Source: a phage
NCBI GenBank assembly: GCA_018865545.1
Contig: GCA_018865545.1_3633.2
DNA length: 54,480 nucleotides
Reading direction: 5' to 3' (one strand)
Below are positions 1 through 13,235 of the stretch, piece after piece (the stretch's first letter is position 1; each line of letters begins with the position of its first letter). The notes beneath the pieces are model-generated. The model saw only the letters and a list, made by a program, of their open reading frames with translations. It was not told the DNA's origin and ran no database searches. The position numbers and the translations under genes are program-made.

Positions 1-116
1 TTTTGAATGTGTACCGGAGCATGGCGCACAGGACTGGTTCATCTGTCTGTCTCAACTGGGGCGCGGCGGGTGTCAAGGTTTAGTTTTACGTTTGTTTGGG
101 TGTGGAGGAGAGTTTT

Positions 117-434
117 ATGGCCTACGATGAAAATTCTATCCGTGTGCTGTCACCTGAGGATATCAAACAACGATTTGACTGGGTACGCATCGGGGATTTG
201 GTTCACGAATATAACTTACCTGTGGATTGGGTCAGACGTGGTTTTGAAGCGTGCTGGAGGTTAGACATCGATCCTGATTATTTTATCAACAAGTACATCC
301 TCAAGCAGGATGTTGATCCTGTACCTGATTTTGAGGCTGTTTTTAAGGAGATTGTTATGGAGTCTCGATTCAAGGATCAGGTATGCACTCGGCAGTCTCA
401 AAAACGCACCTACGAATCAGATTTGCAAATGTAG
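117..434 (+). CDS. hypothetical early protein
   Basis: ORF track 96..434; start moved to ATG117 preceded by GGAGGAG RBS; no recognisable motif. Confidence 0.5.
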   Translation: MAYDENSIRVLSPEDIKQRFDWVRIGDLVHEYNLPVDWVRRGFEACWRLDIDPDYFINKYILKQDVDPVPDFEAVFKEIVMESRFKDQVCTRQSQKRTYESDLQM

Positions 435-513
435 CCTACGGATAGGTAAAAACATCAACGAAAATCGATTCTCCGCTGGATCTACAGAGTAAATTTTCAA
501 TTTTCGGAGAAAA

Positions 514-888
514 ATGATGAAACGTACTATGCCAGACAAAGAGCGCGAAATTGCCCTCCAGTTAGCAAGAGAAAAAAGAGAGCAACAAAAGCGAGAATGG
601 ACTGCGCTGGCAGAAGCGGGAAAAATACGCCAACATTTCGCTGACGCTAATCACTGGACAAGGCTTCGTAGCAAGTATAGGATTTCGTCTCCGTACAAAT
701 TAGCTCCCGCAGAAAGTGAGCATGGAATGAAAATTCTTAGACGAACGATCAGACTGACCGGAGGATTCGAGTGGTTCAATGAGTCTTTCGGTATGGACAT
801 CAAGCAGTTTGTCAGAATGAACCGTACGTGGCCTGCATACGCCATTCAGGGGATCATCCTTGAAGAGTGGGATGATTATCAGAATTGA
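514..888 (+). CDS. hypothetical early protein (basic N-terminus)
   Basis: ORF track; GGAGA RBS before ATG; no motif recognised. Confidence 0.55.
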   Translation: MMKRTMPDKEREIALQLAREKREQQKREWTALAEAGKIRQHFADANHWTRLRSKYRISSPYKLAPAESEHGMKILRRTIRLTGGFEWFNESFGMDIKQFVRMNRTWPAYAIQGIILEEWDDYQN

Positions 889-981
889 TTTTTGTTGTAT
901 TTCTGGTAGCCAACTGGTATGTTTATTACAGGGAGTGATAAACACCCCTGTGTTACTTGTTTTATACAGGAGAGTTGATAT

Positions 982-1605
982 ATGTCTTGGCCTTTTTTGA
1001 TTTATCTTATTGATGTTCTTAGTACGGATGGGAAGTATGATGGCTGGGGATTCTTGTTGTTTCTGTGTGTTATTGTATACATGCTGATGCGTCTTCTTCC
1101 AAAGATCCTCGAAGAACCTAAGCTGGATATCTATCCAGGACAAAATCTTGTTTTAGCACAAGATTGGTCACGATTTAAAGCCGGAGATGTTCTTGTTGTG
1201 AAGGATACTGCGGGTGGTGATGTTCTTCTTCGCCACGGGGAGGAATCCCTTGGTTCTTGGGTGAGCAAGAGCATTTTACGAAAAGTGTGCAAACTTGATG
1301 AAAAACAAGAATATATCCCACAGCAAGATGCGATGGAAACACCGCGAAAGTTAACTGTTATTGCTATGGTTGTCTGTGTAATAGGTATTCTATATGCCAA
1401 CTTCATGCCGCAGAAAGAGACTTCTTACAAGATGCTTGCTGCGTATGTAGGTCAAAACATTGTAGAATCTCCAAGGACTCAACAACTTGCAGACAGCACA
1501 ATCAAGTATCTTGATGCCCAAATCAAGAAGTACACTCAAGAATTGGGTGACTCCTCAGAAGTGGCGAGTAAGGAGTCTAAGCCTGGTGAGAAGGTGAAAG
1601 AGTGA
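982..1605 (+). CDS. hypothetical membrane protein
   Basis: ORF track; AGGAGAG RBS; two hydrophobic segments (LIYLIDVL..FLLFLCVIVYML and VIAMVVCVIGILYANF). Confidence 0.55.
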   Translation: MSWPFLIYLIDVLSTDGKYDGWGFLLFLCVIVYMLMRLLPKILEEPKLDIYPGQNLVLAQDWSRFKAGDVLVVKDTAGGDVLLRHGEESLGSWVSKSILRKVCKLDEKQEYIPQQDAMETPRKLTVIAMVVCVIGILYANFMPQKETSYKMLAAYVGQNIVESPRTQQLADSTIKYLDAQIKKYTQELGDSSEVASKESKPGEKVKE

Positions 1606-1967
1606 TGGGAAAGCCATTTGAAACAAAACGCATAGCGTTGGACTTTGATGATACTTTCACGCTAGAGCCTGAGAGATGGTCACAATTTGTTGCTCTATTT
1701 GCAGCAAAGGATTCAGGTTGGTGTGTTAAATTTGTTACTTATCGCTTCGATTCAGATGATAACTCTGATATCCAGTTTTGGGCTGAAAAACTAGGTATCG
1801 AAATAATTTATTGCAATGGTATCCAGAAAGCACAAGTTTGTGCAGAACTTGGTTGGATCCCAGATGTGTGGATAGACGATTTTCCTGTTCTCATTCCTGT
1901 GAAACAACAACTACAGGGTATGCTTTTAGGAATAGAAAATAACGAAGAAAAACATAATGCTAAGTAG
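1605..1967 (+). CDS. small HAD-like phosphatase (putative)
   Basis: ATG overlaps upstream stop (TGATG); motif IALDFDDTFT matches HAD motif I DxDxT; WIDDF resembles motif IV. Confidence 0.45.
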   Translation: MGKPFETKRIALDFDDTFTLEPERWSQFVALFAAKDSGWCVKFVTYRFDSDDNSDIQFWAEKLGIEIIYCNGIQKAQVCAELGWIPDVWIDDFPVLIPVKQQLQGMLLGIENNEEKHNAK

Positions 1968-2204
1968 TTTAAGGGGGAGTGTTGAGAAGCATTGCGTATT
2001 ACAAATTCAAATGTTGGGAGAAACTCTATGATTTGAGCTACCTTATTTTTGGGAATCTCCCTGTCACTGAAGACATTAAACACAAAATGTATCTTGCATA
2101 CATGAAATACCGTCTCCACGAAAGAAAGAGTGGTTGATGAGAATGTTATGATGCCCTGTAGATACTCTCTACAGGGCTTGAATGCTTAATCACAGGACTT
2201 ACCA

Positions 2205-3029
2205 ATGACAAGTATTTTACACACGACAGGTATTTTACCACACTATCAGAAGGACTATTCTTTCCCTGATTTATCTGGGGATATGTTGCAAATATACGAC
2301 AAAGTGCAAGGCGAAGTGTCGGAGCTACAGTTTAGTTCAGACCCTGATGATGAGCAAGAGTTTGATAAACAGATTTGTCGTGTAGAAAACGAGCTTATAG
2401 AGCTACAATCATTAGCCAAATCAACAGATATCGAAGACTTAAGGCGATACGTAGAGAATCTTGAAAACTTAGTGTTCGGGCTTTCGCAAGCTATTATAAA
2501 CATTGGCGAAATTGCTAAAGTTGCGTCTGACAAGTTGCCAGACAACACAGAAGATATTGAAGAAGCGTTGCAGAATATCTGCTATGAAGGAAGCTCTGCT
2601 CTCGGTTGTGAATGTAGCTTAGGCACTGCCCTCGAAGAACGTGGGTGGAGCCTAGCCCAAAAAACTTTTGTTTATCTTGTTATTGGTGGTGAGTTCCCAC
2701 GACTCTTACAACTTAATGCCCTTTTTGGAAACAGTCAGAGCGATAATATTGCATTAGGTATTGATGGTTGGTTCTGCTTAAGAGGTAAAGAATTAACATT
2801 TTGTCGTGGCGATGATGTGTTAATTCTCAATGCTTCTAAACCTGGTGTTGGAATAACAGTAAGACTTAATGGTAAGTCCACTAATTTCCACACCACAGAA
2901 TTGACAGATATTTTTATGGACATATTCGATCCTACAGAAGACGAAATTCTTATGTATGAAATGACCAGTGGAAAAAGGTATGATATTTTGTTGTGGAGAA
3001 ATATTTTCGGTAAGAAGAAAAGTTTATAG
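2205..3029 (+). CDS. hypothetical protein
   Basis: 274-aa ORF, weak RBS; no motif recognised. Confidence 0.45.
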   Translation: MTSILHTTGILPHYQKDYSFPDLSGDMLQIYDKVQGEVSELQFSSDPDDEQEFDKQICRVENELIELQSLAKSTDIEDLRRYVENLENLVFGLSQAIINIGEIAKVASDKLPDNTEDIEEALQNICYEGSSALGCECSLGTALEERGWSLAQKTFVYLVIGGEFPRLLQLNALFGNSQSDNIALGIDGWFCLRGKELTFCRGDDVLILNASKPGVGITVRLNGKSTNFHTTELTDIFMDIFDPTEDEILMYEMTSGKRYDILLWRNIFGKKKSL

Positions 3030-3285
3030 TATGATATTTTATCGCTGATATTTGTTTTCCCTGTGATATTTTTGTCACAGGGAAAGTTTCAACAACAGAT
3101 ATTTTCTTGATACTTTAAAACTCTACCAGAATTTAAAATTCTGTAAATTTAGAAAACTATTACTTATAAGCGTTTCGACACAATTTTGTTATGAAAGCCT
3201 TGTTTTTATATAAAAACCTGTTTTAGCATGAGTGGTAGGATCACACTCCATACTACCTTTATTCCTACAGATGAGCACCTCCATG

Positions 3286-3500
3286 TCCGAAAACTCGGTT
3301 CTCGATCGAAAATTCATTTTCCAGATCGTATTTGCTCCTTACGGAGAAAATTTTTTAGGGCTACAAATTTCAGTTCTCGATCAGTTTTTCGATTTCAAAA
3401 TCGTATTTGTTTTTTCTTGCGAAAAATTTCGCACGCTCAGTTCTCGATCGAGTTTTCAAAATCGAAATCGTATTTGCTCTATAGCGCGAAAAAATTTTTA
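3286..3500. repeat. three tandem ~68-bp direct repeats (iteron-like), core GTTCTCGATCG...AAATCGTATTTG
   Basis: Direct inspection: units starting near 3286, 3361 and 3428 share GTTCTCGATC(G/A), TTTTC, AAATCGTATTTG and GCGAAAAAATTT blocks. Confidence 0.6.
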
Positions 3501-3881
3501 TGGGTATCATAATTCTATCACACACTTAAACGCAAAGCAACATAAAAATTTTTGTTGAATGATAATCATTCTCATTTGCAGAATGACAGGTAGGATCGGT
3601 GTCTTATCCTCCCCCGTTGACCATCGTCGCCGTAGTTTGAAGTTTATAGCCGTTCTCGGCTTATCTCTTTGTTAGATATAGATTAACATAATTGATAAAG
3701 AAAGCAAGCGTTAATTGTAATCTTTACGTTTCTTTACAAATTTATTTTTGACGAGTTACCGGCGATCGACCTTCCAACCAGCGCCCTGGTATGTTAGCCC
3801 CGCCTTTACGCCGTGGGGATGGCGTTTCCTCTTCTGTATGTGAAACATTATAAGCCCGACCCCCGGGCTTGTCAAACATTT

Positions 3882-4148
3882 TTATTGTTTATTTTCTTGC
3901 CAGGTTAGGACACCTAGCCAGAAATGGCAATCACCTTTCGCCCATTGTGGTATATTGCTTTCTTTCCCACCTTCCCGCGCCCAGGAATAACCGCCCGTGT
4001 AACTTTGCAATTGATAACTATCCTCGACCTTATAATCTGACAGGCTGAGAACTGTTTCTACCTTTAAGCCCGTTGCGCTCGCTACCTGGTGGATAGTTCC
4101 CCCTTGCCAGCCTAACGCGTGCATAAGGTGCAATGTGGTCGTGGTCAT
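3882..4148 (-). CDS. hypothetical protein (isolated minus-strand gene)
   Basis: 88-aa ORF; AGGA RBS 9 nt upstream; possible divergent promoter TTGCCT-16-TATAGA; hairpin GCCCGGGGGTCGGGC downstream. Confidence 0.4.
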   Translation of the reverse strand: MTTTTLHLMHALGWQGGTIHQVASATGLKVETVLSLSDYKVEDSYQLQSYTGGYSWAREGGKESNIPQWAKGDCHFWLGVLTWQENKQ

Positions 4149-4224
4149 TTTTTCTATTCCTCTGTTAGTTGGCTAGTTGTTAAAATTATATCTATAACCA
4201 GCCAGGTTAGCAAGGCAAATAAAA

Positions 4225-4280
4225 GAGAAAAATTTTTTAAAAATAGTATTGACAGCTAGGTAGTATAGATCTACTATGTA
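4225..4280 (+). promoter_or_regulatory. sigma70-like promoter TTGACA-17-TACTAT with AT-rich upstream element (repeat copy 1)
   Basis: TTGACA at 4249-4254, TACTAT at 4272-4277; identical copy at 9289-9317. Confidence 0.55.
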
Positions 4281-4332
4281 CACATCAAGGCGATACACCG
4301 CCACCAACCAACCTAAAAAGGGGTGAATTAAT

Positions 4333-4956
4333 ATGAAAACCATCGTTAACGCTGAGAATGTATCTTTCGATAAGTTGAGCGACGCACAAAAAGAAAAAGC
4401 CATTGATCTTATTCGTGAGCGTGAAAGAGAAAGTAATAATGATTTCTTTGCTGATAGTGTCATTGAAGACTATAAGAATGACATTTTGCCAGAGTACGGG
4501 ATCGATGACGCGGTTATCTATTGGTCAGGATTCTGGTCGCAAGGCGACGGCGCATCAATCAGCACTGACCGCGTGGATATTGAAAAATTTTTAAGAAAAG
4601 TTAAATCTTTAACAAAATTCAGAGGGATCCGCAAACTATTTGATCTCGGTGAATATAGTCCGTTATATGCAAGCATTGAGCGGGATAATTACAGCCGCTA
4701 CCACCATGAAAATACTGTTTCCGGTTACGTTGACACTATGTATTGCGGCGATTTAACGGCAAAGCAGGAAGATTTGACCAATCAGCTTGAAAACTTGTTA
4801 ACTGAAACGATCCGCGATCTGTCTTGTAAACTTTACAGAGATTTAGAATCAGCCTACGATGACCAGTTTACAGATGAAGCCATCACAGAATCAATCGAAG
4901 CCAATGATTATCGTTTTGATATTGATGAAGATGGAAAAGTTTACGCTATCGCTTAA
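4333..4956 (+). CDS. hypothetical acidic early protein
   Basis: ORF track; AAAGGGG RBS; shares its first 8 codons (MKTIVNAE) with the gene at 9373. Confidence 0.6.
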   Translation: MKTIVNAENVSFDKLSDAQKEKAIDLIRERERESNNDFFADSVIEDYKNDILPEYGIDDAVIYWSGFWSQGDGASISTDRVDIEKFLRKVKSLTKFRGIRKLFDLGEYSPLYASIERDNYSRYHHENTVSGYVDTMYCGDLTAKQEDLTNQLENLLTETIRDLSCKLYRDLESAYDDQFTDEAITESIEANDYRFDIDEDGKVYAIA

Positions 4957-5046
4957 AAGTACTTGCATTCAGTTTTAAAATAGTACTATACTACTACAAC
5001 AACAGGACGGGGAACCGCTCCCCGTCACATTCAGGAGATCATCAAA

Positions 5047-5265
5047 ATGGCTAATATCCGCACATTGTTAAAAAATGCAAAGCAAGTTTTATTTTCTGAC
5101 GACGAATATTTTAATTGCAATATCAAAGGCGTTCGGAACATCGAGGATGTAAAGGATTTATTTGGAATAAAAGGTAATGTATATCGTAAAGGGTTACACG
5201 GCAATCATCTTGAATATAAGTTAGCTGATAGTGATTATAATTTTACTTTGACAATTATTTCATAA
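5047..5265 (+). CDS. hypothetical protein
   Basis: ORF track; AGGAGA RBS; preceded by GC hairpin 5006-5028. Confidence 0.5.
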   Translation: MANIRTLLKNAKQVLFSDDEYFNCNIKGVRNIEDVKDLFGIKGNVYRKGLHGNHLEYKLADSDYNFTLTIIS

Positions 5266-5330
5266 AACCACTTGCAAAGTTATATAGTCCTGTTATACTA
5301 CCAACATTGACAAACGAGAGGTAAATAAAA

Positions 5331-5687
5331 ATGGCAATCCAGGCAATCATGTTAGAACTTACAGACTTCCGTAATACTGTAAAAAATTTAACCAAAAAAC
5401 AGGTTGATAATATTATCAACGGATACCGTAGCAAGATTAAAGATCTTCCGCTTAAACGCGATCAACATGCGGCTAATATGATGCTTGACGCTATGATCAA
5501 AAAGATGATTCAGTGCGATCTTACTCTGGCTTATGAATACGCTGGCGATCTCTTTGTAACGTATAATAAGCCAGTGCCAGGCATGTGCACCACGGAAGAA
5601 TTGCACGCCCTGAATCTAAAACAAGATGCATGGGATAATATGCGCCGCGTTATGGTGTGGGCAGAAAGCGGTAAAATTTATCAATAA
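5331..5687 (+). CDS. hypothetical protein
   Basis: ORF track; GAGAGG RBS; upstream TTGCAA-16-TATACT promoter-like sequence. Confidence 0.55.
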   Translation: MAIQAIMLELTDFRNTVKNLTKKQVDNIINGYRSKIKDLPLKRDQHAANMMLDAMIKKMIQCDLTLAYEYAGDLFVTYNKPVPGMCTTEELHALNLKQDAWDNMRRVMVWAESGKIYQ

Positions 5688-5689
5688 AG

Positions 5690-5735
5690 ATAGTTGTCTT
5701 TTAGTTATGCCGTGGTAGAATACACGGCATAGATA
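5690..5735 (+). promoter_or_regulatory. promoter TTGTCT-16-TAGAAT with palindrome ATGCCGTG/CACGGCAT flanking the -10
   Basis: Direct inspection; near-identical element at 10280-10325. Confidence 0.45.
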
Positions 5736-5763
5736 AGAGAAACTACTTATCAGAGTTTAAAAG

Positions 5764-5982
5764 ATGAAAAATATTACGGGTAAAACCGAGCTATTAAAGG
5801 CGCTTTCTGTCGGTGAGTCAGCTTTATGGGTATGCGAAAAAGATCGCCTACCGTCGCGTGAGATGGCCTTGTTTAAGGCTTTATCTTTGAAGCTGAAAAT
5901 TAAATTATCCCAAAAATTAGCGGTTGTTGCCGCACCTGGGGAAACTGCTTTCAGTGTCGTAATGGTTAAAAGGTTGGAGTAG
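5764..5982 (+). CDS. hypothetical protein
   Basis: 72-aa ORF downstream of the palindromic promoter; weak RBS. Confidence 0.4.
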   Translation: MKNITGKTELLKALSVGESALWVCEKDRLPSREMALFKALSLKLKIKLSQKLAVVAAPGETAFSVVMVKRLE

Positions 5983-6067
5983 AAAAAATTAAAAATTATA
6001 TTGACAAGCAAAACAGCAAAAATTAAACTTACACACAGTTAAACAAACAATATTAACGAGGTAAATC

Positions 6068-6439
6068 ATGAAACAGTTAACCGCTTCCCAAAAAGCAATG
6101 ATCCGTGAGTATGTTTTAAACTCTCTTTCTTTCGATATTGAATCGGGTAGCGAGCAAGATCAGATCAAAGAATTAAAAAACCGATTTGAATCTGAATACT
6201 GGTACGATAGCAACAAGAAACGCTATCAAAATGATAAAGTACAAGGCCTCAAAAATTGGTTGCAAGGTTTGCCGAGTGGTGTTAATATCGATTTCACTTA
6301 TTACGATATTGAGCAACGCCTTAAAGATTTTGGGGTCATCACCGAGACGACCAGAGAAAACACTATTGAAAAATATATCTCTGAGTGGTGGGATCTGGTA
6401 GCGCCGTTTTATGCTGGGCTAATCGTCAACTTAAAATAA
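6068..6439 (+). CDS. hypothetical protein
   Basis: ORF track; GAGG RBS; upstream TTGACA-17-TAAACT. Confidence 0.55.
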   Translation: MKQLTASQKAMIREYVLNSLSFDIESGSEQDQIKELKNRFESEYWYDSNKKRYQNDKVQGLKNWLQGLPSGVNIDFTYYDIEQRLKDFGVITETTRENTIEKYISEWWDLVAPFYAGLIVNLK

Positions 6440-6516
6440 TTATTGCAAACTATCTAAAACTGGTTTAAATTAAAGGGAGTGAGTTTATCACTCCCAACAT
6501 GAAAGAGGTTAATCAA

Positions 6517-6828
6517 ATGAATAGTTATTTTGCTACTCGTTCACTTGCACGCATTGCAGCGAAAGAAACAGGCGGCAAAGTTTTAGATAATGGTAAAGAT
6601 GCGCCTATCGGTAAACGTTGGCAGGTTATCCCTGGCTATGTTGTTGAAGCCGTCCAGGATACAGCAAAACAACGCGCCGAGATGGAGAATAAACCAGTAG
6701 TTACCTTGTCCATTGCTAAGCGTAGCAATGTAGCGAATCAAGCCCGTAAGGCGCTTTATTACGCCATCAATTACGCAAAAAATAATAAAATTGTTCCAGT
6801 TTATCATAAGCGTTCATTTAAGAAATAA
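6517..6828 (+). CDS. hypothetical protein
   Basis: ORF track 6499..6828; start moved to ATG6517 behind AAGAGG RBS; hairpin 6473-6493 upstream. Confidence 0.5.
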   Translation: MNSYFATRSLARIAAKETGGKVLDNGKDAPIGKRWQVIPGYVVEAVQDTAKQRAEMENKPVVTLSIAKRSNVANQARKALYYAINYAKNNKIVPVYHKRSFKK

Positions 6829-6897
6829 TTTTTAATTAGATAAAAAGCGCCCTAAGAAATGGGCGCTAAACAAAAACACTTAAAGAGGTAAATTATT

Positions 6898-7248
6898 ATG
6901 GCCAGCATTGTAGAAGTTTTCAAAAAAGCCGTAGAAAATAAAAACGCTGAATTGTCTTTAGTATCTCTGGATTTTACTGATGCTTACGGTAACACTTATT
7001 TTGTTTACGAGCTTGCTTTTACTTGTCCTGAATTGAAAACATGGGAAACATTGCATAAATCTCGCGATCTGCAATATGGATATGGCGATCACGTTTTAAC
7101 TGTTGCAATGAAAGACCTTGCAATCATTACCGGGATGGGATCGGACGCTGTATATATTACCCGTTGGGCACACGATAACGATTTAAAAATCAGTGTCAAC
7201 AAGCGCACCAATTGCCGCAAAAAAGATCTAAAACAGTTCATCGCTTAA
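6898..7248 (+). CDS. hypothetical protein
   Basis: ORF track; AAGAGGT RBS; hairpin AGCGCCC..GGGCGCT upstream. Confidence 0.55.
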
Positions 7249-7264
7249 TCATCCTGGTAGCTGT

Positions 7265-7615
7265 ATGATTCAGTTTTATATAATCATCGCGGCGCTTGCA
7301 ATTTATTTAGGATTGCATAAAAAAATATTTAGATTGATTCTCTGGTTTTACTACGAATACAGGATCAGAATGGTTTATCACTATATCGAATACTCTTTTC
7401 ACGGTGAGAGATACCACACCAGAAGATCCGGCCCATTAAATGATCTTGAGGGCAACGGTTTAATCTGTGAGGTTAAAAAGCGTGGCGGTAAAATTCTTTA
7501 CCACAAAGAGGGTACTTTTGATTATATTGATGACGTGATTAATTTTAGGCAGCAAGCCGTTGCAGATCACGCCAGCAAAATAATCAACGGCAGCTATAAA
7601 CGCAAAGCGGGGTAA
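7265..7615 (+). CDS. hypothetical protein with N-terminal transmembrane segment
   Basis: ORF track; hydrophobic N-terminus IIIAALAIYLGL; weak RBS. Confidence 0.4.
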   Translation: MIQFYIIIAALAIYLGLHKKIFRLILWFYYEYRIRMVYHYIEYSFHGERYHTRRSGPLNDLEGNGLICEVKKRGGKILYHKEGTFDYIDDVINFRQQAVADHASKIINGSYKRKAG

Positions 7616-7616
7616 T

Positions 7617-7799
7617 ATGCGGAATTTTGAAAAAATTGTTAAGGCTAATCGTCTGGAATATGGGGAAACAGACGAAAAACGGGAACGGGTAGGCAAACGT
7701 CACAAACCTAAAAAGGTTCCGAAATTGTGGTGTCCTGATAAATACGATCACAAATTAAAACAGCGTATCGCTGAAAAACAGCGACTTAACGCAAGATAG
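7617..7799 (+). CDS. small basic protein
   Basis: ORF track; Lys/Arg-rich; followed by intrinsic terminator. Confidence 0.4.
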   Translation: MRNFEKIVKANRLEYGETDEKRERVGKRHKPKKVPKLWCPDKYDHKLKQRIAEKQRLNAR

Positions 7800-7804
7800 C
7801 AGAC

Positions 7805-7830
7805 AAGGCCGGATAGTTCCGGCCTTTTTA
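7805..7830 (+). terminator. rho-independent terminator
   Basis: Hairpin AAGGCCGGA-TAGT-TCCGGCCTT followed by TTTTT. Confidence 0.6.
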
Positions 7831-8016
7831 GTGCCTGGCAGCGCCTGTAACGATTAAAAAGGCCAACGGTGGCGTGATGCACCACAAAATAAAATAGCTC
7901 GCCAGAGAGCTTTTTAGAGGCCTTAAAATCGATCCGAAAAATATTGATAAAAAATGCTTGCAATGCTTTCCAGATACTGATAGTGTTACTTCAACAAACA
8001 AAACGAGGTAACGGCA

Positions 8017-8154
8017 ATGATCGAAGTTCTTAAAAATCCTATTTTGTGTGGTATGGTTGTTTCTGTACTACTCCCGATCTCGCTGTTAGTCGTTAGCGAA
8101 ATAGATGATTTTCTTTTCAATAAAAGACTTGCCAACAAGTCAAAAACAAATTAA
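8017..8154 (+). CDS. small hydrophobic peptide (45 aa)
   Basis: Not in ORF track (under 60 aa); ACGAGGT RBS 7 nt before ATG8017; hydrophobic core ILCGMVVSVLLPISLLVV. Confidence 0.3.
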   Translation: MIEVLKNPILCGMVVSVLLPISLLVVSEIDDFLFNKRLANKSKTN

Positions 8155-8191
8155 TATAGTATCAGCATACTAACTAGCGAGGTGATTTAAT

Positions 8192-8410
8192 ATGTTTGGT
8201 TTTATTGTTCTATCTTGTTCTCTTTCTGTCACTGCTGCAAAGGTAGAATGTAACTACACTGTAAAAGAGACTTTTAATGATGAAAAGTCTTGCAATGCAT
8301 ACGAAAATAATTATAAACTAGGAGACGGGGAGCAGTTCGGGATCTGTGATGAATTAAAAGACGGGATCAAGAAAGGTGATAAGCGCCCGATCCTAGTCCT
8401 GAAAAAATAA
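8192..8410 (+). CDS. small secreted protein (putative signal peptide)
   Basis: ORF track; GCGAGGTG RBS; N-terminus MFGFIVLSCSLSVTAA resembles a signal peptide. Confidence 0.5.
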   Translation: MFGFIVLSCSLSVTAAKVECNYTVKETFNDEKSCNAYENNYKLGDGEQFGICDELKDGIKKGDKRPILVLKK

Positions 8411-8450
8411 TTTTCTAATCATGTTGATCAATTTTTAAGAGGTGAATAAA

Positions 8451-8738
8451 ATGTTTGAAGTTTTCGCGGGTATGTGTTTTTATACAGCTTTGGCAGTTCG
8501 CCAGTGTGATGATTATATCGTTGAATCATACGACGATCAGTTAACTTGCGAAATAGTCGCTAATGACTACGGCAAAAAAGATCGCTGGGTTAATCCGGCT
8601 TGTATACCATCCCCAGAGGTAGAAGCCATGCCAGAAGGGGAAGAGGTGACGGATCCAGTTGTAGCGGTATCCTCCTTTTTCGTTGACAACCTGGACGCCC
8701 AAGAATTGATCAACATGTATGTAAAAAATCAAAAATAA
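8451..8738 (+). CDS. hypothetical protein
   Basis: ORF track 8442..8738; start moved to ATG8451 behind AAGAGGTG RBS. Confidence 0.5.
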   Translation: MFEVFAGMCFYTALAVRQCDDYIVESYDDQLTCEIVANDYGKKDRWVNPACIPSPEVEAMPEGEEVTDPVVAVSSFFVDNLDAQELINMYVKNQK

Positions 8739-8780
8739 CGCTTGACGTTGATTTGTGCCACCTTATAATAGGTGGCATAG
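8738..8780 (+). promoter_or_regulatory. promoter TTGACG-16-TATAAT with palindrome TGCCACC/GGTGGCA flanking the -10
   Basis: Direct inspection of 8742-8777. Confidence 0.45.
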
Positions 8781-8828
8781 GTAAGCGAAAGCGGATCTAA
8801 ATCTTAAACAAGTTAAGAGAGGTAAATC

Positions 8829-9149
8829 ATGGAACAAGCTAATAAATTTTTCTTCCTGGCTGGGATCGTGGATAATGTGAAATGTGATTTCAAGCGTGAA
8901 AATGATAAGACGTTACTCACTTTCTGCGATATGCTTGATCATGAGAATGCCGACACGTTACGAATTGAGATCCGCACGATAACCAATATCGACAACGCAA
9001 GCCGTTTAATTTATAAAACTCATTCTATAGCCTACAGCCTAGAAACATCGACAAGCTGCCTGCAACAAGGTGAGAGCTTGCCTATTCTAAATAGTGCCGA
9101 TGTATTTGGCGCGGTTGTTGCCATTGTGAACGATGTTTTTTCCCGCTGA
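8829..9149 (+). CDS. hypothetical protein
   Basis: ORF track; AGAGAGGT RBS. Confidence 0.5.
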   Translation: MEQANKFFFLAGIVDNVKCDFKRENDKTLLTFCDMLDHENADTLRIEIRTITNIDNASRLIYKTHSIAYSLETSTSCLQQGESLPILNSADVFGAVVAIVNDVFSR

Positions 9150-9264
9150 TTGGTGTTAATCTTATGTTAGAAAATATCGTTTTTTGGTGTGGTGTCGTTC
9201 TTGCTGTTATGGTTGGCCTTCTGGCGACGATGGAGAATATTGTGATCTCAAATAACCTGGCACG

Positions 9265-9320
9265 GTAAAAAATTTTTTAAAAATAGTATTGACAGCTAGG
9301 TAGTATAGATCTACTATGTA
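9265..9320 (+). promoter_or_regulatory. sigma70-like promoter TTGACA-17-TACTAT (repeat copy 2)
   Basis: Part of the 130-bp perfect direct repeat 9268-9397 = 4228-4357. Confidence 0.55.
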
Positions 9321-9372
9321 CACATCAAGGCGATACACCGCCACCAACCAACCTAAAAAGGGGTGAATTAAT

Positions 9373-9660
9373 ATGAAAACCATCGTTAACGCTGAGATAA
9401 AAGAGGGTAACAAAATAAATATTCTAACAGTTTATGGCGAGACTGTGGAGTCAGTATCGGAGGCTATTAATAAGATTACACAAAAAATTGCAATTGAAAT
9501 ATTAGCCAGTGATCCGGCTCGTTTGTTTAATGATGTGTACCATGATGACGTATCTTTGCCGTGCTTCACTTTCAAAACAGAAAGCACGTTTGACAAAGTA
9601 AAAAAGTGTATACCTGTTCACGTCTATCTGTGCCAGGAAGATCCAGAAGATTGGATCTAA
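9373..9660 (+). CDS. hypothetical protein
   Basis: ORF track; same RBS and first 8 codons as the gene at 4333, then diverges. Confidence 0.55.
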   Translation: MKTIVNAEIKEGNKINILTVYGETVESVSEAINKITQKIAIEILASDPARLFNDVYHDDVSLPCFTFKTESTFDKVKKCIPVHVYLCQEDPEDWI

Positions 9661-9695
9661 CGGTTGACAATACGCAATGATTGCTTATAATAACC
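9660..9695 (+). promoter_or_regulatory. promoter TTGACA-16-TATAAT
   Basis: Consensus hexamers at 9664-9669 and 9686-9691. Confidence 0.5.
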
Positions 9696-9738
9696 CGCAT
9701 CAGACGGTAAGTTTTCCGCACCTAACAAAAGGCTAATA

Positions 9739-10008
9739 ATGATGAACATCTCAAAAACTACTTTCAACTTCGCTAAAAAGCGTGGGATTGAGCTTGAGCT
9801 AATCGCAGCAGATGATCGCTTGGTCCTGGCTTTTTATGAAGCTAAAAACGAATGTGAGTGGATGTTCTCTTATAATGTTAACTATGATTGCCTAACATGG
9901 CGCGGCAATATCTATCTTCCAAACGAAGTAAAAGAGGAATTACCAGCCACGATCACGACTGAGAAAAAATTACGTGAAGTTATTGACTTCATCTCTAAAA
10001 GTATCTAA
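9739..10008 (+). CDS. hypothetical protein
   Basis: ORF track; AAAGG RBS; downstream of consensus promoter. Confidence 0.5.
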   Translation: MMNISKTTFNFAKKRGIELELIAADDRLVLAFYEAKNECEWMFSYNVNYDCLTWRGNIYLPNEVKEELPATITTEKKLREVIDFISKSI

Positions 10009-10054
10009 GATTACAGGGAAAGGGGCAAAAGCCCCCTACCGCAGAAGGTATAAA

Positions 10055-10279
10055 ATGGATAAATTAACAAAGATTGAACATGAAGTTATGGATCTTGCAA
10101 GGGCTAATAGGCCATTTGACAAGATTTTCTCTAAGGAGAATAAAGAGATCTTGAAAGGTCTAACGCAAGGTCAAAAAGACGGCTTGCGCCGCTTATATCG
10201 TGAGGCGTATGACTATTTTCGCTGGTGGGAAATAGAAGAGGCTAACGCGAAAATAGAAGGCCTAGAAAATTTAGTATAA
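10055..10279 (+). CDS. hypothetical protein
   Basis: ORF track 9974..10279; start moved to ATG10055 behind GAAGGT RBS; GC hairpin 10017-10040 upstream. Confidence 0.45.
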   Translation: MDKLTKIEHEVMDLARANRPFDKIFSKENKEILKGLTQGQKDGLRRLYREAYDYFRWWEIEEANAKIEGLENLV

Positions 10280-10325
10280 AAGTAGTTGACTTTTACTTAT
10301 GCCGTGATAGAATGCACGGCATAGA
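10280..10325 (+). promoter_or_regulatory. promoter TTGACT-16-TAGAAT with palindrome GCCGTG/CACGGC flanking the -10
   Basis: Near-identical to the element at 5690-5735. Confidence 0.45.
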
Positions 10326-10374
10326 TAAGAGAGACGGCACAAGCCATTGATTAAACTTAAAGAGGTAAATTATC

Positions 10375-10776
10375 ATGAATACTTACAAAACTGTTTTTAA
10401 TTTCGACAACTTCAAAGCTATCTGTGACGATCAGATCGGTAAGTGCCGTAAAGAAAAAGGATTCTATAAGTCTTATAAATTGATTGCGGTTGTTGATGAA
10501 GAGATCACCGAAGTGGCAACGCTCAACCTGTACCACACCAACGCTACTAATTACGCTTGCCTGTGGATGCACTGGACCAATATTAAAGGTTGGGATCATG
10601 GCTATGTTGGCGGGAAAGCAAGCGGATACGGTTACGACAGGGAGGAGGCCGCGATCCATGTCGCAGCTAATAAGCTCGGTATTACTGGCAACTGGTTTAA
10701 AGGTGAACAATTGCTAGATGCGATGGCACGTCATTTTGATATGAAAGGCGCGAAGGTTATCTGCTGCAACGCGTGA
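10375..10776 (+). CDS. hypothetical protein
   Basis: ORF track; AAAGAGGT RBS. Confidence 0.55.
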   Translation: MNTYKTVFNFDNFKAICDDQIGKCRKEKGFYKSYKLIAVVDEEITEVATLNLYHTNATNYACLWMHWTNIKGWDHGYVGGKASGYGYDREEAAIHVAANKLGITGNWFKGEQLLDAMARHFDMKGAKVICCNA

Positions 10777-10823
10777 TCACTCAATAGCGGGGAATATTCC
10801 CCGCTTATAGATAGGGCATAATC

Positions 10824-11282
10824 ATGATTTACGATCTTAAATATTACGACGAATTGAGCATTGCAGCACAATTAACCGCCCGTGTCAATATTATAGCAGA
10901 CCTGGAGAATCACCACAGAAAGCGCATAGTTCAGGCTGTCGCCAGTTTTAAAAATGATCCCCATAAAGTGATTAATGACACGGAGCACATTTCACGCCTC
11001 ATAAACGGCGCAAAGGCGCTTTATAGTGTACGTCATTACGGGGATGATTACCTTATAAAGTTTATTCGTGATAATCGTTTGATCTTTACCCCTGGAGGCA
11101 GCTATATAGCCTATAGCGACGGCTTTATGATGATTATTAAGGGTAAGGAATACATCCCCACGGCCTCACAACAAAAAGCATTGAGAGCGCTTTACATCGC
11201 CATTAATGAGCGTGGCCCGTCATATCATGATTGGCTATATAGAATGCACCACAAAATAAAATTTTTTATGATTCCCGCTTGA
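10824..11282 (+). CDS. hypothetical protein
   Basis: ORF track; preceded by hairpin GCGGGGAATATTCCCCGC. Confidence 0.5.
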   Translation: MIYDLKYYDELSIAAQLTARVNIIADLENHHRKRIVQAVASFKNDPHKVINDTEHISRLINGAKALYSVRHYGDDYLIKFIRDNRLIFTPGGSYIAYSDGFMMIIKGKEYIPTASQQKALRALYIAINERGPSYHDWLYRMHHKIKFFMIPA

Positions 11283-11360
11283 CACCCTCATAAAAACGCC
11301 TTATTATCTATCTCATAAGGCGGGGAGCGGTTCCCCGCCACACTTAAGAGGTAAATAATC

Positions 11361-11750
11361 ATGCGTAACCTGGTTCATGTTTCCAACGTTGAAAAATTCC
11401 AATCTTTACAGGCTATCGTAAACGATACAGCGCCTTTTATCGTTAAAGGCTTGATCGCAAGAATGCAACAGAAAAAACCTGAAATCTGGGCTAATTATTG
11501 CCTTGATAATGATGATCAGGCCGCCGCTTTCATGGTTAGCGAACTGCTGGGAAGTGTAGGGAACATGTTACCGGAAAACATCGCAGAAGAGATCACCTAT
11601 CGTTATAATATGGCGATAACTTATCAGGAGGTTGCGCAATTTAACCTGATGGATGACGACGAACAACAGGATCAGGAAATTTACTGGGAGTATGCCGACC
11701 GTCAGGCAGCTTTTGATGAACGGTTGGAGATGTACTATAACGAATGGTAA
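11361..11750 (+). CDS. hypothetical acidic protein
   Basis: ORF track; TAAGAGGT RBS; acidic C-terminus DDDEQQDQE. Confidence 0.55.
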   Translation: MRNLVHVSNVEKFQSLQAIVNDTAPFIVKGLIARMQQKKPEIWANYCLDNDDQAAAFMVSELLGSVGNMLPENIAEEITYRYNMAITYQEVAQFNLMDDDEQQDQEIYWEYADRQAAFDERLEMYYNEW

Positions 11751-11756
11751 TAAACA

Positions 11757-11787
11757 GGCCGCATATTAGCGGCCTTTAATTTTTTCT
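11757..11787 (+). terminator. rho-independent terminator
   Basis: Hairpin AGGCCGC-ATATTA-GCGGCCT followed by TTAATTTTTT. Confidence 0.6.
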
Positions 11788-11847
11788 ATTGACAATATTA
11801 CACTAACCTTTAAAATGTTCTCTATTAAGTATCTTTAAAGGTGTAAC

Positions 11848-12027
11848 ATGCTCCAATCAATCATTGATGTTCTATCAGTCGCTAACAACGTGATGAACGT
11901 AATTACAATGATTAAACTTGTTGCGTGGTTTGTTTCCGGGGATTATCGCTATATTAAATGGCGCAAGCCAACCATAAAAGACGTAGTGAAGATCTCATTT
12001 GAAGCAATGACAGAATATTATCTATAA
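11848..12027 (+). CDS. small hypothetical protein (59 aa)
   Basis: Not in ORF track; AAAGGTG RBS before ATG11848; upstream TTGACA promoter-like. Confidence 0.3.
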   Translation: MLQSIIDVLSVANNVMNVITMIKLVAWFVSGDYRYIKWRKPTIKDVVKISFEAMTEYYL

Positions 12028-12088
12028 CGATTATTTTTTGTTGACATCCAAAAGATTTTTCAATACCATTGATCACATAAGGGCGGCA

Positions 12089-12316
12089 ATGATGCTGCCC
12101 ACAACTGAAAGAGAAATCACCATGGCGCTTAAAAAACTAACAAGTAATACACGTTGGGATGAAATCGGCGGGGAAGTATACATTTTCGCCCGTAAACCAG
12201 GTGATCAAAAATGGTCAAAGGCTTTTACTTGCCACCCTGCAACCATAGACCTGATAAAAAGGGAAGGTTTACGCGAAGCAGTAGCAAGAAATTTGCTGAT
12301 TCCTTATAAAAAATAG
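12089..12316 (+). CDS. hypothetical protein
   Basis: ORF track 12038..12316; start moved to ATG12089 behind AAGGGCGG; upstream TTGACA-17-TACCAT. Confidence 0.45.
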   Translation: MMLPTTEREITMALKKLTSNTRWDEIGGEVYIFARKPGDQKWSKAFTCHPATIDLIKREGLREAVARNLLIPYKK

Positions 12317-12382
12317 TTTGAAATTAATTTCATTATTGATAAAATCTTATATAAAACTTTAACCTAAAAGGGGTAAATTAAT

Positions 12383-12583
12383 ATGAAACGTTTTACTTAT
12401 GGTGTGGTTGGCGGTTCTGTTTCAAACCGTTTTTACAATACCGAGCGTGGTGCTAAAAATGCAGCTACCCGTGAATATGGCAATAGTGCAAATTTACAAG
12501 TTGGCTACATTAGCAAAATTAGCGGTATGTTTATTCCGGTTGCTCAACGCGGCATGTATTGCATAAACTGGATGCCAATGTAA
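12383..12583 (+). CDS. hypothetical protein
   Basis: ORF track; AAAAGGGGT RBS. Confidence 0.5.
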   Translation: MKRFTYGVVGGSVSNRFYNTERGAKNAATREYGNSANLQVGYISKISGMFIPVAQRGMYCINWMPM

Positions 12584-12598
12584 AAAGGAGTAATAAAA

Positions 12599-12790
12599 AT
12601 GGATGTACCACAAGTTAGAAAGGTATTAGCAGCGTTACGCTATCACAATCATAGCAAGGTGAAGAATGATCCTGATTATGTTGATTCCAGCTTGGAGGAA
12701 GACACCTTGCAAGCTATAAGCCATATGCAGGAATTGCTTAAGCGTATGACAGAGAAGAACAGATCTGATTATATAGGTGAAGAGATTTAA
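12599..12790 (+). CDS. hypothetical protein
   Basis: ORF track; AAAGGAG RBS. Confidence 0.5.
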   Translation: MDVPQVRKVLAALRYHNHSKVKNDPDYVDSSLEEDTLQAISHMQELLKRMTEKNRSDYIGEEI

Positions 12791-12821
12791 TCTCTTACAA
12801 CCGCACAAAGTAAAATTGTAC

Positions 12822-12850
12822 AAGGGGCGCATTAAGCGCCCTTTATTTTT
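12822..12850 (+). terminator. rho-independent terminator ending the plus-strand cluster
   Basis: Hairpin GGGGCGC-ATTA-AGCGCCC followed by TTTATTTTTG. Confidence 0.6.
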
Positions 12851-13235
12851 GCCCTAACAAGTATGATAAGTTTTATCTATCAAAACACCACACAGAAAAA
12901 AGTGAATAAAACGCGGTATCGAGCTAAACGAGGGCAGACAATACAACGGCAAGGCTGAACATTTAAGGCCGTTATAACGCGATTCAGGCCGCTTAAAATC
13001 GATCCCCACCACGAACAACCCCCACAAAATGACTAAAACGACACAACATGACCTAAATGATAACCATTATCAATAACATAAGCATTTTTATGCGTTTTTA
13101 GTGAATATCTATTTAAATGATAATGACTCTCAACAACAAACTAACACGACCGAAGCGATTTAATCGCCTACCACAAAATTAATCATTTGTAAAGAACAAT
13201 TTAAAAGCTGCGTAAGTGGCGCGACCGTAGGGAGC

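Follow-up and report, generated by a model that had tools for sequence, protein, structure and literature searches.

PeSL-like promoter and stem-loop cassettes in the predicted early gene block of an rV5-like coliphage

PeSLs are elements of T4-type phages that combine a strong sigma70 promoter with a stem-loop described as 'polyG followed by polyC' (Arbiol et al. 2010, PMC2839356). They have been described for RB49/phi1, PST/T4 and nt-1/KVP40 (PMC2839356; Comeau et al. 2014, PMC4122927). The stem-loop can lie in the spacer that separates -35 from -10, over either box, upstream of them, or downstream of the -10 box (PMC2839356), and the elements precede ORFans in hyperplastic regions, where they mediate modular shuffling (PMC2839356; PMC4122927). 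The PeSL literature that we searched deals mainly with T4-type phages, with passing mentions elsewhere and none on rV5- or phi92-like phages, and the rV5 genome paper describes promoters and terminators only. Here we analyze five GC-rich hairpins (hp1 to hp5) that precede small genes on a phage contig of 54,480 nucleotides (GCA_018865545.1_3633.2, assembly GCA_018865545.1), referred to as the window, and compare them with PeSLs. Positions are those of the window unless another sequence is named, and all features are listed in Table 1.

At 92-93% identity, the region from 4800 to 11600 matches Escherichia phage Av-05, along with phages 18-1-2, 19-1-2, 24-2-1 and TH18, across 95% of its length, and by this similarity we assign the window to Avunavirus, Vequintavirinae, as an rV5/Av-05-like coliphage. 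Small + strand genes make up the region. Ten of their proteins were searched against Pfam, where none matched a family above the cut-off, and the same ten fall only into unknown-function groups of PHROGs. We regard the region as a probable ORFan-rich early block; its conservation relative to the IMG/VR contig L003, described below, is mosaic. Rfam scans of the entire window at gathering score, and of 4800-11600 at E<=1, gave no match, and a tRNA scan was likewise empty.

An initial annotation had placed the five hairpins just upstream of the ribosome-binding sites of downstream genes. All five are present, offset by 0-3 nucleotides (nt) from where it put them, and they stop short of the next start codons (ATG 5047, 6517, 10055, 10824 and 11361) by 20, 21, 19, 18 and 21 nt, respectively. 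RNA folding, one of the checks it had proposed, supports the structures. The energies of hp1 to hp5 are -15.5, -14.8, -12.2, -15.2 and -17.7 kcal/mol, and the corresponding z-scores against dinucleotide shuffles are -3.1, -4.5, -1.95, -3.9 and -3.7, so that hp3 is the weakest. Bases 1-13000 contain 15 perfect GC-rich stems with 6 or more base pairs (bp), compared with 2.1 +/- 1.4 (maximum 5) in 30 dinucleotide shuffles of the same bases, and there are 10 GC-rich stems of at least 8 bp compared with 0.6. The stem count is far above chance, and 14 of the 15 perfect stems are intergenic. None of the five hairpins is followed by a T-run on the + strand, where a terminator scan calls none of them; their 3' tails (ACAUUCAGG, AACAUGAAAG, CUACCGCAG, UAUAGAUAGG and ACACUUAAGA) contain no U-tract. 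hp1 and hp5 had been described as reverse complements of each other. This holds at 19 of 21 bases within the window and is exact (21 of 21) only between hp1 and the Av-05 ortholog of hp5, a relation which means that the two hairpins share one palindromic stem with the loop flipped.

Although the hairpins do lie between genes, as first described, that description missed the sigma70-like promoters found just upstream of four of them. hp1, hp2, the hp3 core and hp5 begin 13, 3, 10 and 11 nt past the respective -10 boxes, and a scan listed no promoter of at least 9/12 matches upstream of hp4. In phage alia and in L003, the ortholog of the gene downstream of hp1 is preceded by TTGACA-16-TAAAAT and a hairpin. 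We interpret hp1, hp2, hp3 and hp5 as parts of predicted promoter/5'-leader cassettes. The general form of the cassette, as found again in alia, Salmonella phage PVP-SE1 and Klebsiella phage KP13-26, is TTGACA-N17-TAnnnT, 9-15 nt, a G-rich/C-rich hairpin, 17-25 nt that include a Shine-Dalgarno sequence (SD), and ATG. If transcription starts 7 nt past the -10 box, as we assume throughout, the predicted unpaired 5' leaders of hp1, hp3 and hp5 measure 7, 4 and 5 nt, and the predicted start of hp2 falls inside its 5' arm. The stretch from hairpin to start codon is mostly unpaired in predicted folds, with short weak pairings touching the SD for hp1 and hp3. A motif that approximates (T)ATCACATAG or ACACACAT also follows the -10 box at several sites (window 4278-4288 and 11308-11318; L005, the alia sequence, 1686-1697; the RB49 PeSLs in L008). 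It is common to the cassettes of Vequintavirinae and Stephanstirmvirinae and to RB49 PeSLs, and may reflect a common preference of the initial transcribed region.

Table 1. Hairpins, promoters, gene modules and terminators in the window.
Feature	Position	Strand	Sequence and remarks
hp1	5006-5026	+	GACGGGGA/ACCGC/TCCCCGTC; 8-bp stem, 5-nt loop
hp2	6475-6495	+	GGGAGTGA/GTTTA/TCACTCCC; 8-bp stem
hp3	core 10022-10035	+	GGGGC/AAAA/GCCCC; weak outer pairs, 10016-10040
hp4	10786-10805	+	AGCGGGGA/ATAT/TCCCCGCT; 9 nt past stop of gene 10375-10776
hp5	11319-11339	+	GGCGGGGA/GCGGT/TCCCCGCC; 8-bp stem
Putative sigma70 promoter before hp1	4963-4992	+	TTGCAT-18-TATACT; 9/12, read by eye
Putative promoter before hp2	6443-6471	+	TTGCAA-17-TAAATT; 9/12 by eye, weak match
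Promoter before hp3	9983-10011	+	TTGACT-17-TAAGAT; 9/12; overlaps stop of gene 9739-10008
Strong promoter before hp5	11279-11307	+	TTGACA-17-TATTAT; 11/12; overlaps stop of gene 10824-11282
Sixth hairpin without U-tract	6846-6867	+	AGCGCCC/TAAGAAAT/GGGCGCT
Inverted repeat around -10 TAGAAT of promoter 5694-5721	5706-5731	+	near-copy of 10298-10323
Inverted repeat around -10 TATAAT of promoter 8742-8769	8756-8777	+	
Inverted repeat around -10 TAGAAT of promoter 10286-10313	10298-10323	+	
Hairpin filling spacer of minus-strand promoter 3875-3847	3852-3870	-	promoter TTGACA-17-TATAAT
Weak 4-bp hairpin	4289-4302	+	GGCG/ATACAC/CGCC; 11 nt past -10 of promoter 4249-4277
Duplicate GGCG/CGCC hairpin	9329-9342	+	11 nt past -10 of promoter 9289-9317
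Gene module (gene 9373-9660 and promoter parts)	9295-9721	+	absent from Av-05 and 18-1-2
Gene module (ORF 12038-12316)	12049-12371	+	absent from Av-05
Canonical terminator	7805-7826	+	hairpin and T-run, in contrast to hp1-hp5
Canonical terminator	11756-11775		hairpin and T-run
Canonical terminator	12825-12841		hairpin and T-run

The pairing of these hairpins is conserved between relatives even where their sequence is not. Comparison of 16 window hairpins with Av-05 found 14 changed stem positions. Ten of these form five compensatory pairs (at 3852, hp2, 8756, 10298 and hp5), two create G.U pairs, which hold on the + strand only (hp1 and 8756), and two are loop-proximal mismatches. hp2 keeps a 7-bp stem in Av-05 and 18-1-2 through a deletion and a T>C change. 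The 8756 repeat shows a compensatory A-T>G-C change in Av-05 together with a U.G pair, the 10298 repeat a compensatory G-C>A-T change in the same phage, and the 3852 hairpin a compensatory G-C>A-T change in relatives. Two further compensatory pairs and one G.U pair distinguish Av-05 from 18-1-2 in the cassette hairpin before the ortholog of gene 9739 (GGGGAGAG/CTCTCCCC vs GGGGCAAG/CTTGCCTC). Orthologs of hp5 from five genera, which include Avunavirus, Justusliebigvirus, Seunavirus and that of Klebsiella phage KP13-26, are 100% paired over 60 cells. Two of the eight pairs vary on both sides (pair 2, GC/CG/AU; pair 7, GC/AU), a covariation score matched by 0 of 500 shuffles, and every slid register scores worse. 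The hp1 stem is kept in Av-05 (with a G.U closing pair), 18-1-2 and L034, a Logan contig described below, and its loop varies among ACCGC, ATCGC, ACTGC and ATCAC. The loop of hp3 is GAAA in Av-05 and 18-1-2, and hp4 has an unchanged stem and a variable loop across four relatives.

The two arms of the hairpins are not equivalent. In each of hp1 to hp5, G predominates in the 5' arm and C in the 3' arm. In 42 non-redundant hairpins the 5' arms contain 191 G and 53 C (78% G among G+C), and there are five cases of a G.T pair followed by a Watson-Crick pair compared with one of the A.C equivalent. Together, the compensatory changes, the G-rich 5' arms and the bias toward G.U indicate a structure that is read on the sense strand, as RNA. 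The free variation and the inversion of loops (see below) favor a generic structure over a sequence-specific binding site. These patterns indicate that base pairing is under selection and that the hairpins are evolutionarily maintained RNA stem-loops.

The initial annotation had overlooked that the five hairpins belong to a cassette family repeated in the window and in related genera, as well as the match of that family to published PeSLs. Relatives were collected by tblastn on a phage collection; a single-protein search gave two loci, and a word-indexed search gave few distant ones. L003 carries a homolog of gene 11361-11750 with 74% identity, and its early block contains at least 10 copies of the cassette in 7 kb, each running from TTGACA-16/17-TAnnnT across 9-15 nt to a hairpin (for example GGCGGGAAA/TGG/TTTCCCGCC) and then over 17-24 nt with an SD to the ATG. 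The cassette is also present in alia (Justusliebigvirus, Stephanstirmvirinae), in Salmonella phage PVP-SE1 (Seunavirus), where stems are GCCGGGG/CCCCGGC, and in KP13-26. The last has additional hairpins within the -35/-10 spacer (TTGAC-GCGCCC-AAGGAAA-GGGCGC-ATAAT) at 104, 1509, 7177 and 7487. A common geometry is seen in the window, L003, alia, PVP-SE1 and KP13-26: the hairpin starts 9-15 nt past the -10 box and ends 15-25 nt before the ATG, most often 17-25 nt. Strong promoters (at least 10/12 matches) before open reading frames (ORFs) number 46 in the window, alia, PVP-SE1 and KP13-26, and 23 of them have a hairpin. Promoter-less hairpins with a spacing to the ATG like that of hp4 occur at L003 6016, alia 8533 and PVP-SE1 10401. 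A scan of IMG/VR for CGGGGAGCGGTTCCCCG gave 17 matches, 15 of them by chance in unrelated GC-rich contigs; it found the cassette only in Av-05 and one 153-kb contig (L027) and says little on distribution.

One relative provides a natural knock-out of a single hairpin. In L034 (SRR31429831, a 96% relative), a deletion of about 24 nt at 3440-3525 has removed the loop and 3' arm of hp2, and the leftover 5' arm, GGGTGAGG, is the SD of the downstream gene. We also considered whether hairpins and canonical terminators are mutually exclusive and dropped the idea. Hairpins are lacking at two terminator-preceded promoters and at 21 of 44 others, a difference that is not significant, and in L032 a hairpin cassette lies about 400 nt past a terminator, counter to exclusion.

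Whole gene modules come and go at the cassettes. The left breakpoint of the 9295-9721 module lies directly past the -35 hexamer TTGACA and that of the 12049-12371 module directly past TTGACATC, here too at the end of the -35 hexamer; in both, the right junction is at the SD. Partial cassette repeats are found between 4225-4357 and 9268-9397 and between 5673-5743 and 10266-10335. A second copy of the promoter at 4249, with its leader and the opening codons of gene 4333, stands before gene 9373-9660, and we suggest that the module of this gene was acquired or duplicated via cassette recombination.

The favored function, which we hold with evenly balanced confidence, is that of non-terminating sense-strand RNA structures that serve, in a general way, to protect and insulate the ends of RNA. 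Each hairpin would be the stem-loop part of a PeSL-like cassette composed of an early sigma70 promoter, G(n)-loop-C(n), an SD and a small ORFan. Without a U-tract it would let RNA polymerase pass, and it would cap and insulate a short early mRNA. In transcripts from their own promoters, hp1, hp3 and hp5 would lie about 4-7 nt from the predicted 5' end and could hinder 5'-end-dependent attack by RppH and RNase E, with a presumed gain in RNA half-life. 5' secondary structures have a stabilizing effect because both enzymes require single-stranded 5' ends (review PMC3997798). hp4, hp2 and 6846, in read-through or polycistronic RNA, would block the entry of 3' exonucleases into the upstream cistron or, alternatively, form a protective 5' structure after processing. 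The classes inside promoters would act only on upstream transcripts or at the DNA level. Transcription probably reads through hp4 and its analogues, since they stand before promoter-less genes. Efficient termination is unlikely given this arrangement, the missing U-tracts and the proper terminators elsewhere in the block, and we predict that termination at hp1 to hp5 is weak. The early view that these are unlikely to be intrinsic terminators is supported, and its suggestion of transcript stabilizers is still the best functional guess.

Several points weigh against an end-protecting role. Neither a transcriptome nor a start-site map of Vequintavirinae or Stephanstirmvirinae turned up in our literature search. 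Unpaired leaders of 4-7 nt are at or above the few-nt limit of classical 5' stabilizers, which Emory et al. reportedly showed in 1992 to tolerate few unpaired nucleotides, and hp2 would itself be entered by its predicted start. The repeats at 5706, 8756, 10298 and 3852 would be absent from the RNA of their own promoters, so a single '5' cap' cannot account for every member. Hairpins are missing from about half of the strong early promoters and L034 has lost hp2, which marks the hairpins as dispensable accessories. Finally, one RB49 stem-loop behaves like a terminator according to the PeSL authors (PMC2839356).

The last point leads to an alternative that we judge unlikely but credible, in which the hairpins attenuate or terminate transcription from upstream promoters and thereby limit the build-up of read-through across packed early promoters. 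The PeSL papers assign this role, and the RB49 stem-loop in question cut downstream lacZ like rrnB T1 (PMC2839356). Attenuation would suit every position class, whether in the spacer, around the -10 box, past it, or promoter-less, and in PVP-SE1 one stem, GCCGGGA/TCCCGGC, occurs in annotated terminators, where T-runs follow it, and also at sites that have no T-run. However, none of the five hairpins has a U-tract, and the same block uses canonical terminators where they are needed. Genes behind promoter-less hairpins (10824-11282; PVP-SE1 gp183) would be unexpressed if termination were efficient, and the tested RB49 stem-loop belongs to the spacer class and is followed by an A/T-rich -10 box, unlike hp1 to hp5.

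The distance from hairpin to ATG is the most constant measure in the family, at 15-25 nt whether or not a promoter is present (18-21 nt in hp1 to hp5). Such constancy, and the mostly unpaired region between hairpin and start codon in predicted folds, would fit translation-initiation insulators, in which a hairpin 6-12 nt upstream of the SD frees the ribosome-binding site from upstream pairing and uncouples ribosomes that terminate upstream. We consider this rather improbable: the spacing could simply reflect cassette compaction and common descent, many early genes have equally good SDs without a hairpin, and L034 has lost hp2 and reuses its 5' arm as an SD.

A more ambitious version of the end-protecting role is a long shot. 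Here the hairpin would go beyond passive stabilizing and form a dedicated part of the 5' leader of early mRNAs, lineage-wide across rV5-, Av-05-, PVP-SE1- and phi92-like phages. If so, it could mark early transcripts for immunity to a phage-induced, 5'-end-dependent shut-off of host mRNA, or offer a handle for an early-to-middle switch factor, and the loop flip-flops described next would show that DNA inversion mediated by hairpins is a routine kind of mutation in them.

Loops are exactly reverse-complemented between close relatives, with identical stems, at 2153-2177, 7805-7826, 11756-11775 and 12825-12841 of the window, and again between L003 2857-2880 and L005 5374-5397. The inverted pairs are TACTC/GAGTA, TAGT/ACTA, ATATTA/TAATAT, ATTAA/TTAAT and GCTATT/AATAGC. 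The pattern looks like repeated flipping at the DNA level between short inverted repeats, through template switching or recombination within a strand.

These inversions, and hp1 as a loop-flipped hp5, mean that the DNA repeats do interact. The hairpins could on this ground be DNA-level elements, namely hot spots of recombination or template switching that serve cassette shuffling, cruciforms, or operators of a dimeric phage repressor placed a short way downstream of early promoters; module indels break at cassettes and some repeats lie inside promoters, as such a role would have it. We nevertheless regard it as very unlikely. Compensatory changes preserve pairing rather than sequence, and neither the excess of G over C in 5' arms nor the + strand G.U pairs are expected if the site is symmetric and read as double-stranded DNA. 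For cruciforms to extrude, arms of 5-9 bp are short. Within one genome, half-sites differ in sequence and spacing more widely than a dimeric protein would tolerate, and with the compensatory changes this led us to reject the repressor operator.

The initial annotation had also raised RNase III dependence. T7 early mRNAs are processed at intergenic hairpins, which the intercistronic position here resembles, and classical RNase III substrates span roughly two helical turns of double-stranded RNA. The stems here are 5-8 bp and leader folds contain no extended duplex; there is no Rfam match, and neither loops nor stems are conserved in sequence. Specific processing sites for RNase III or a phage nuclease are thus a remote prospect. 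Terminators of antisense, minus-strand transcription are barely credible and were rejected: T-rich minus-strand tails, flagged by the terminator scan, occur at only three sites (hp1, hp2 and 6846) and stem from the A-rich promoter region upstream, hp3, hp4, hp5 and alia-type cassettes have no such tails, and the bias in arm orientation goes with the sense genes.

Other hairpins of the window fall into further PeSL position classes. Those at 5706, 8756 and 10298 overlap the -10 box, and that at 3852 lies between -35 and -10. The hairpin at 6846-6867 stands 30 nt before ATG 6898 and has at most a weak promoter. The equivalent first cassette of PVP-SE1, corresponding to the weak GGCG/CGCC hairpin, has GGGCG...CGCCC. 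Upstream of the block, three direct repeats of about 63 nt (CTCAGTTCTCGATCGA...ATCGTATTTGCTC) with a spacing of 67-75 nt occupy 3294-3498, within a 1.3-kb gene-free divergent non-coding region (3030-4330). Phage alia carries annotated repeat_regions in a possibly equivalent region, and the repeats are a candidate replication origin or iteron-like array.

Two database annotations of genes behind the hairpins deserve comment. The Av-05 ortholog of the gene behind hp2 is annotated from an upstream ATG (window 6499) that lies 3 nt past the hairpin and has no SD. The 18-1-2 annotation and the SD (AAAGAGGT) favor 6517, and the Av-05 start is likely mis-annotated. The 70-72 amino acid ORFan behind hp1 is labeled 'phosphoribosylpyrophosphate synthetase' in Av-05 (L001 6820-7032, Av05_0027), and the label has spread to the alia ortholog (L005 5114-5329). 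The window ortholog has no Pfam match, and the name looks like an annotation error.

The cassettes described here extend the PeSL idea of portable, ORFan-flanking promoter/stem-loop units from T4-type phages to two further groups of large myoviruses, Vequintavirinae and Stephanstirmvirinae, and suggest that hyperplastic early regions share a design or have converged on one. They provide a rule by which early transcription units can be annotated in therapeutic rV5- and phi92-like phages (promoter, 9-15 nt, hairpin, about 20 nt to the ATG) and a caution that such hairpins should not be labeled terminators. They are also compact natural 5'-leader parts for expression design.

Among other known systems, lambda nut/boxB and HK022 put likewise place a small hairpin in the RNA just past an early promoter. 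The hairpins described here differ in that they have no conserved loop or boxA-like partner, their loops vary and invert, and, instead of occurring once per operon, they precede almost every small gene. Intercistronic stabilizers (REP in malEFG; selective RNA processing and stabilization; T4 CUUCGG) also lie between cistrons without a U-tract. Such hairpins can block 3' exonucleases and set differential stability, a layout that hp4 and 6846 fit, but the present family has no REP consensus and no UUCG loops, and most of its copies are tied to promoters. With the 5' stabilizers of the ompA and papA leaders and the T7 phi10 leader of pET vectors, the cassettes would share a stable GC-rich hairpin near the predicted 5' end, upstream of the SD, and an unstructured ribosome-binding site. 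They differ in the predicted unpaired leader of 4-7 nt, longer than ideal, and in having family members that cannot be in their own transcript.

PeSLs are the closest match. In the RB49 region, which we inspected directly, we see TTGACA-GGGGATCACGTATCCCC-TATACT and stems that enclose the -10 box, none with a U-tract. Both systems join a near-consensus sigma70 early promoter to a G(n)-loop-C(n) hairpin that has no U-tract, followed by SD and ATG; they occur in many copies per genome before the small ORFans of a hyperplastic region; and in both, module indels between close relatives break at cassettes. The position classes are the same, with hp1, hp2, hp3 and hp5 downstream of the -10 box and hp4 and 6846 promoter-less or 'half'. 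The lineages differ (Vequintavirinae and Stephanstirmvirinae here, the T4-like myoviruses of Straboviridae for PeSLs), as does the balance of classes, since the downstream-of--10 class in the 5' leader is dominant here and a minority in RB49/phi1. Promoter-less copies are a further difference, and the window copies are less uniform than those of alia or RB49. The PeSL concept includes termination or attenuation by the stem-loop and recombination of cassettes into mini-circles; for the present cassettes, the sequence predicts weak termination. On this comparison the hairpins are best described as PeSL-like cassettes outside the T4 group, of a known kind and calling for no new mechanism.

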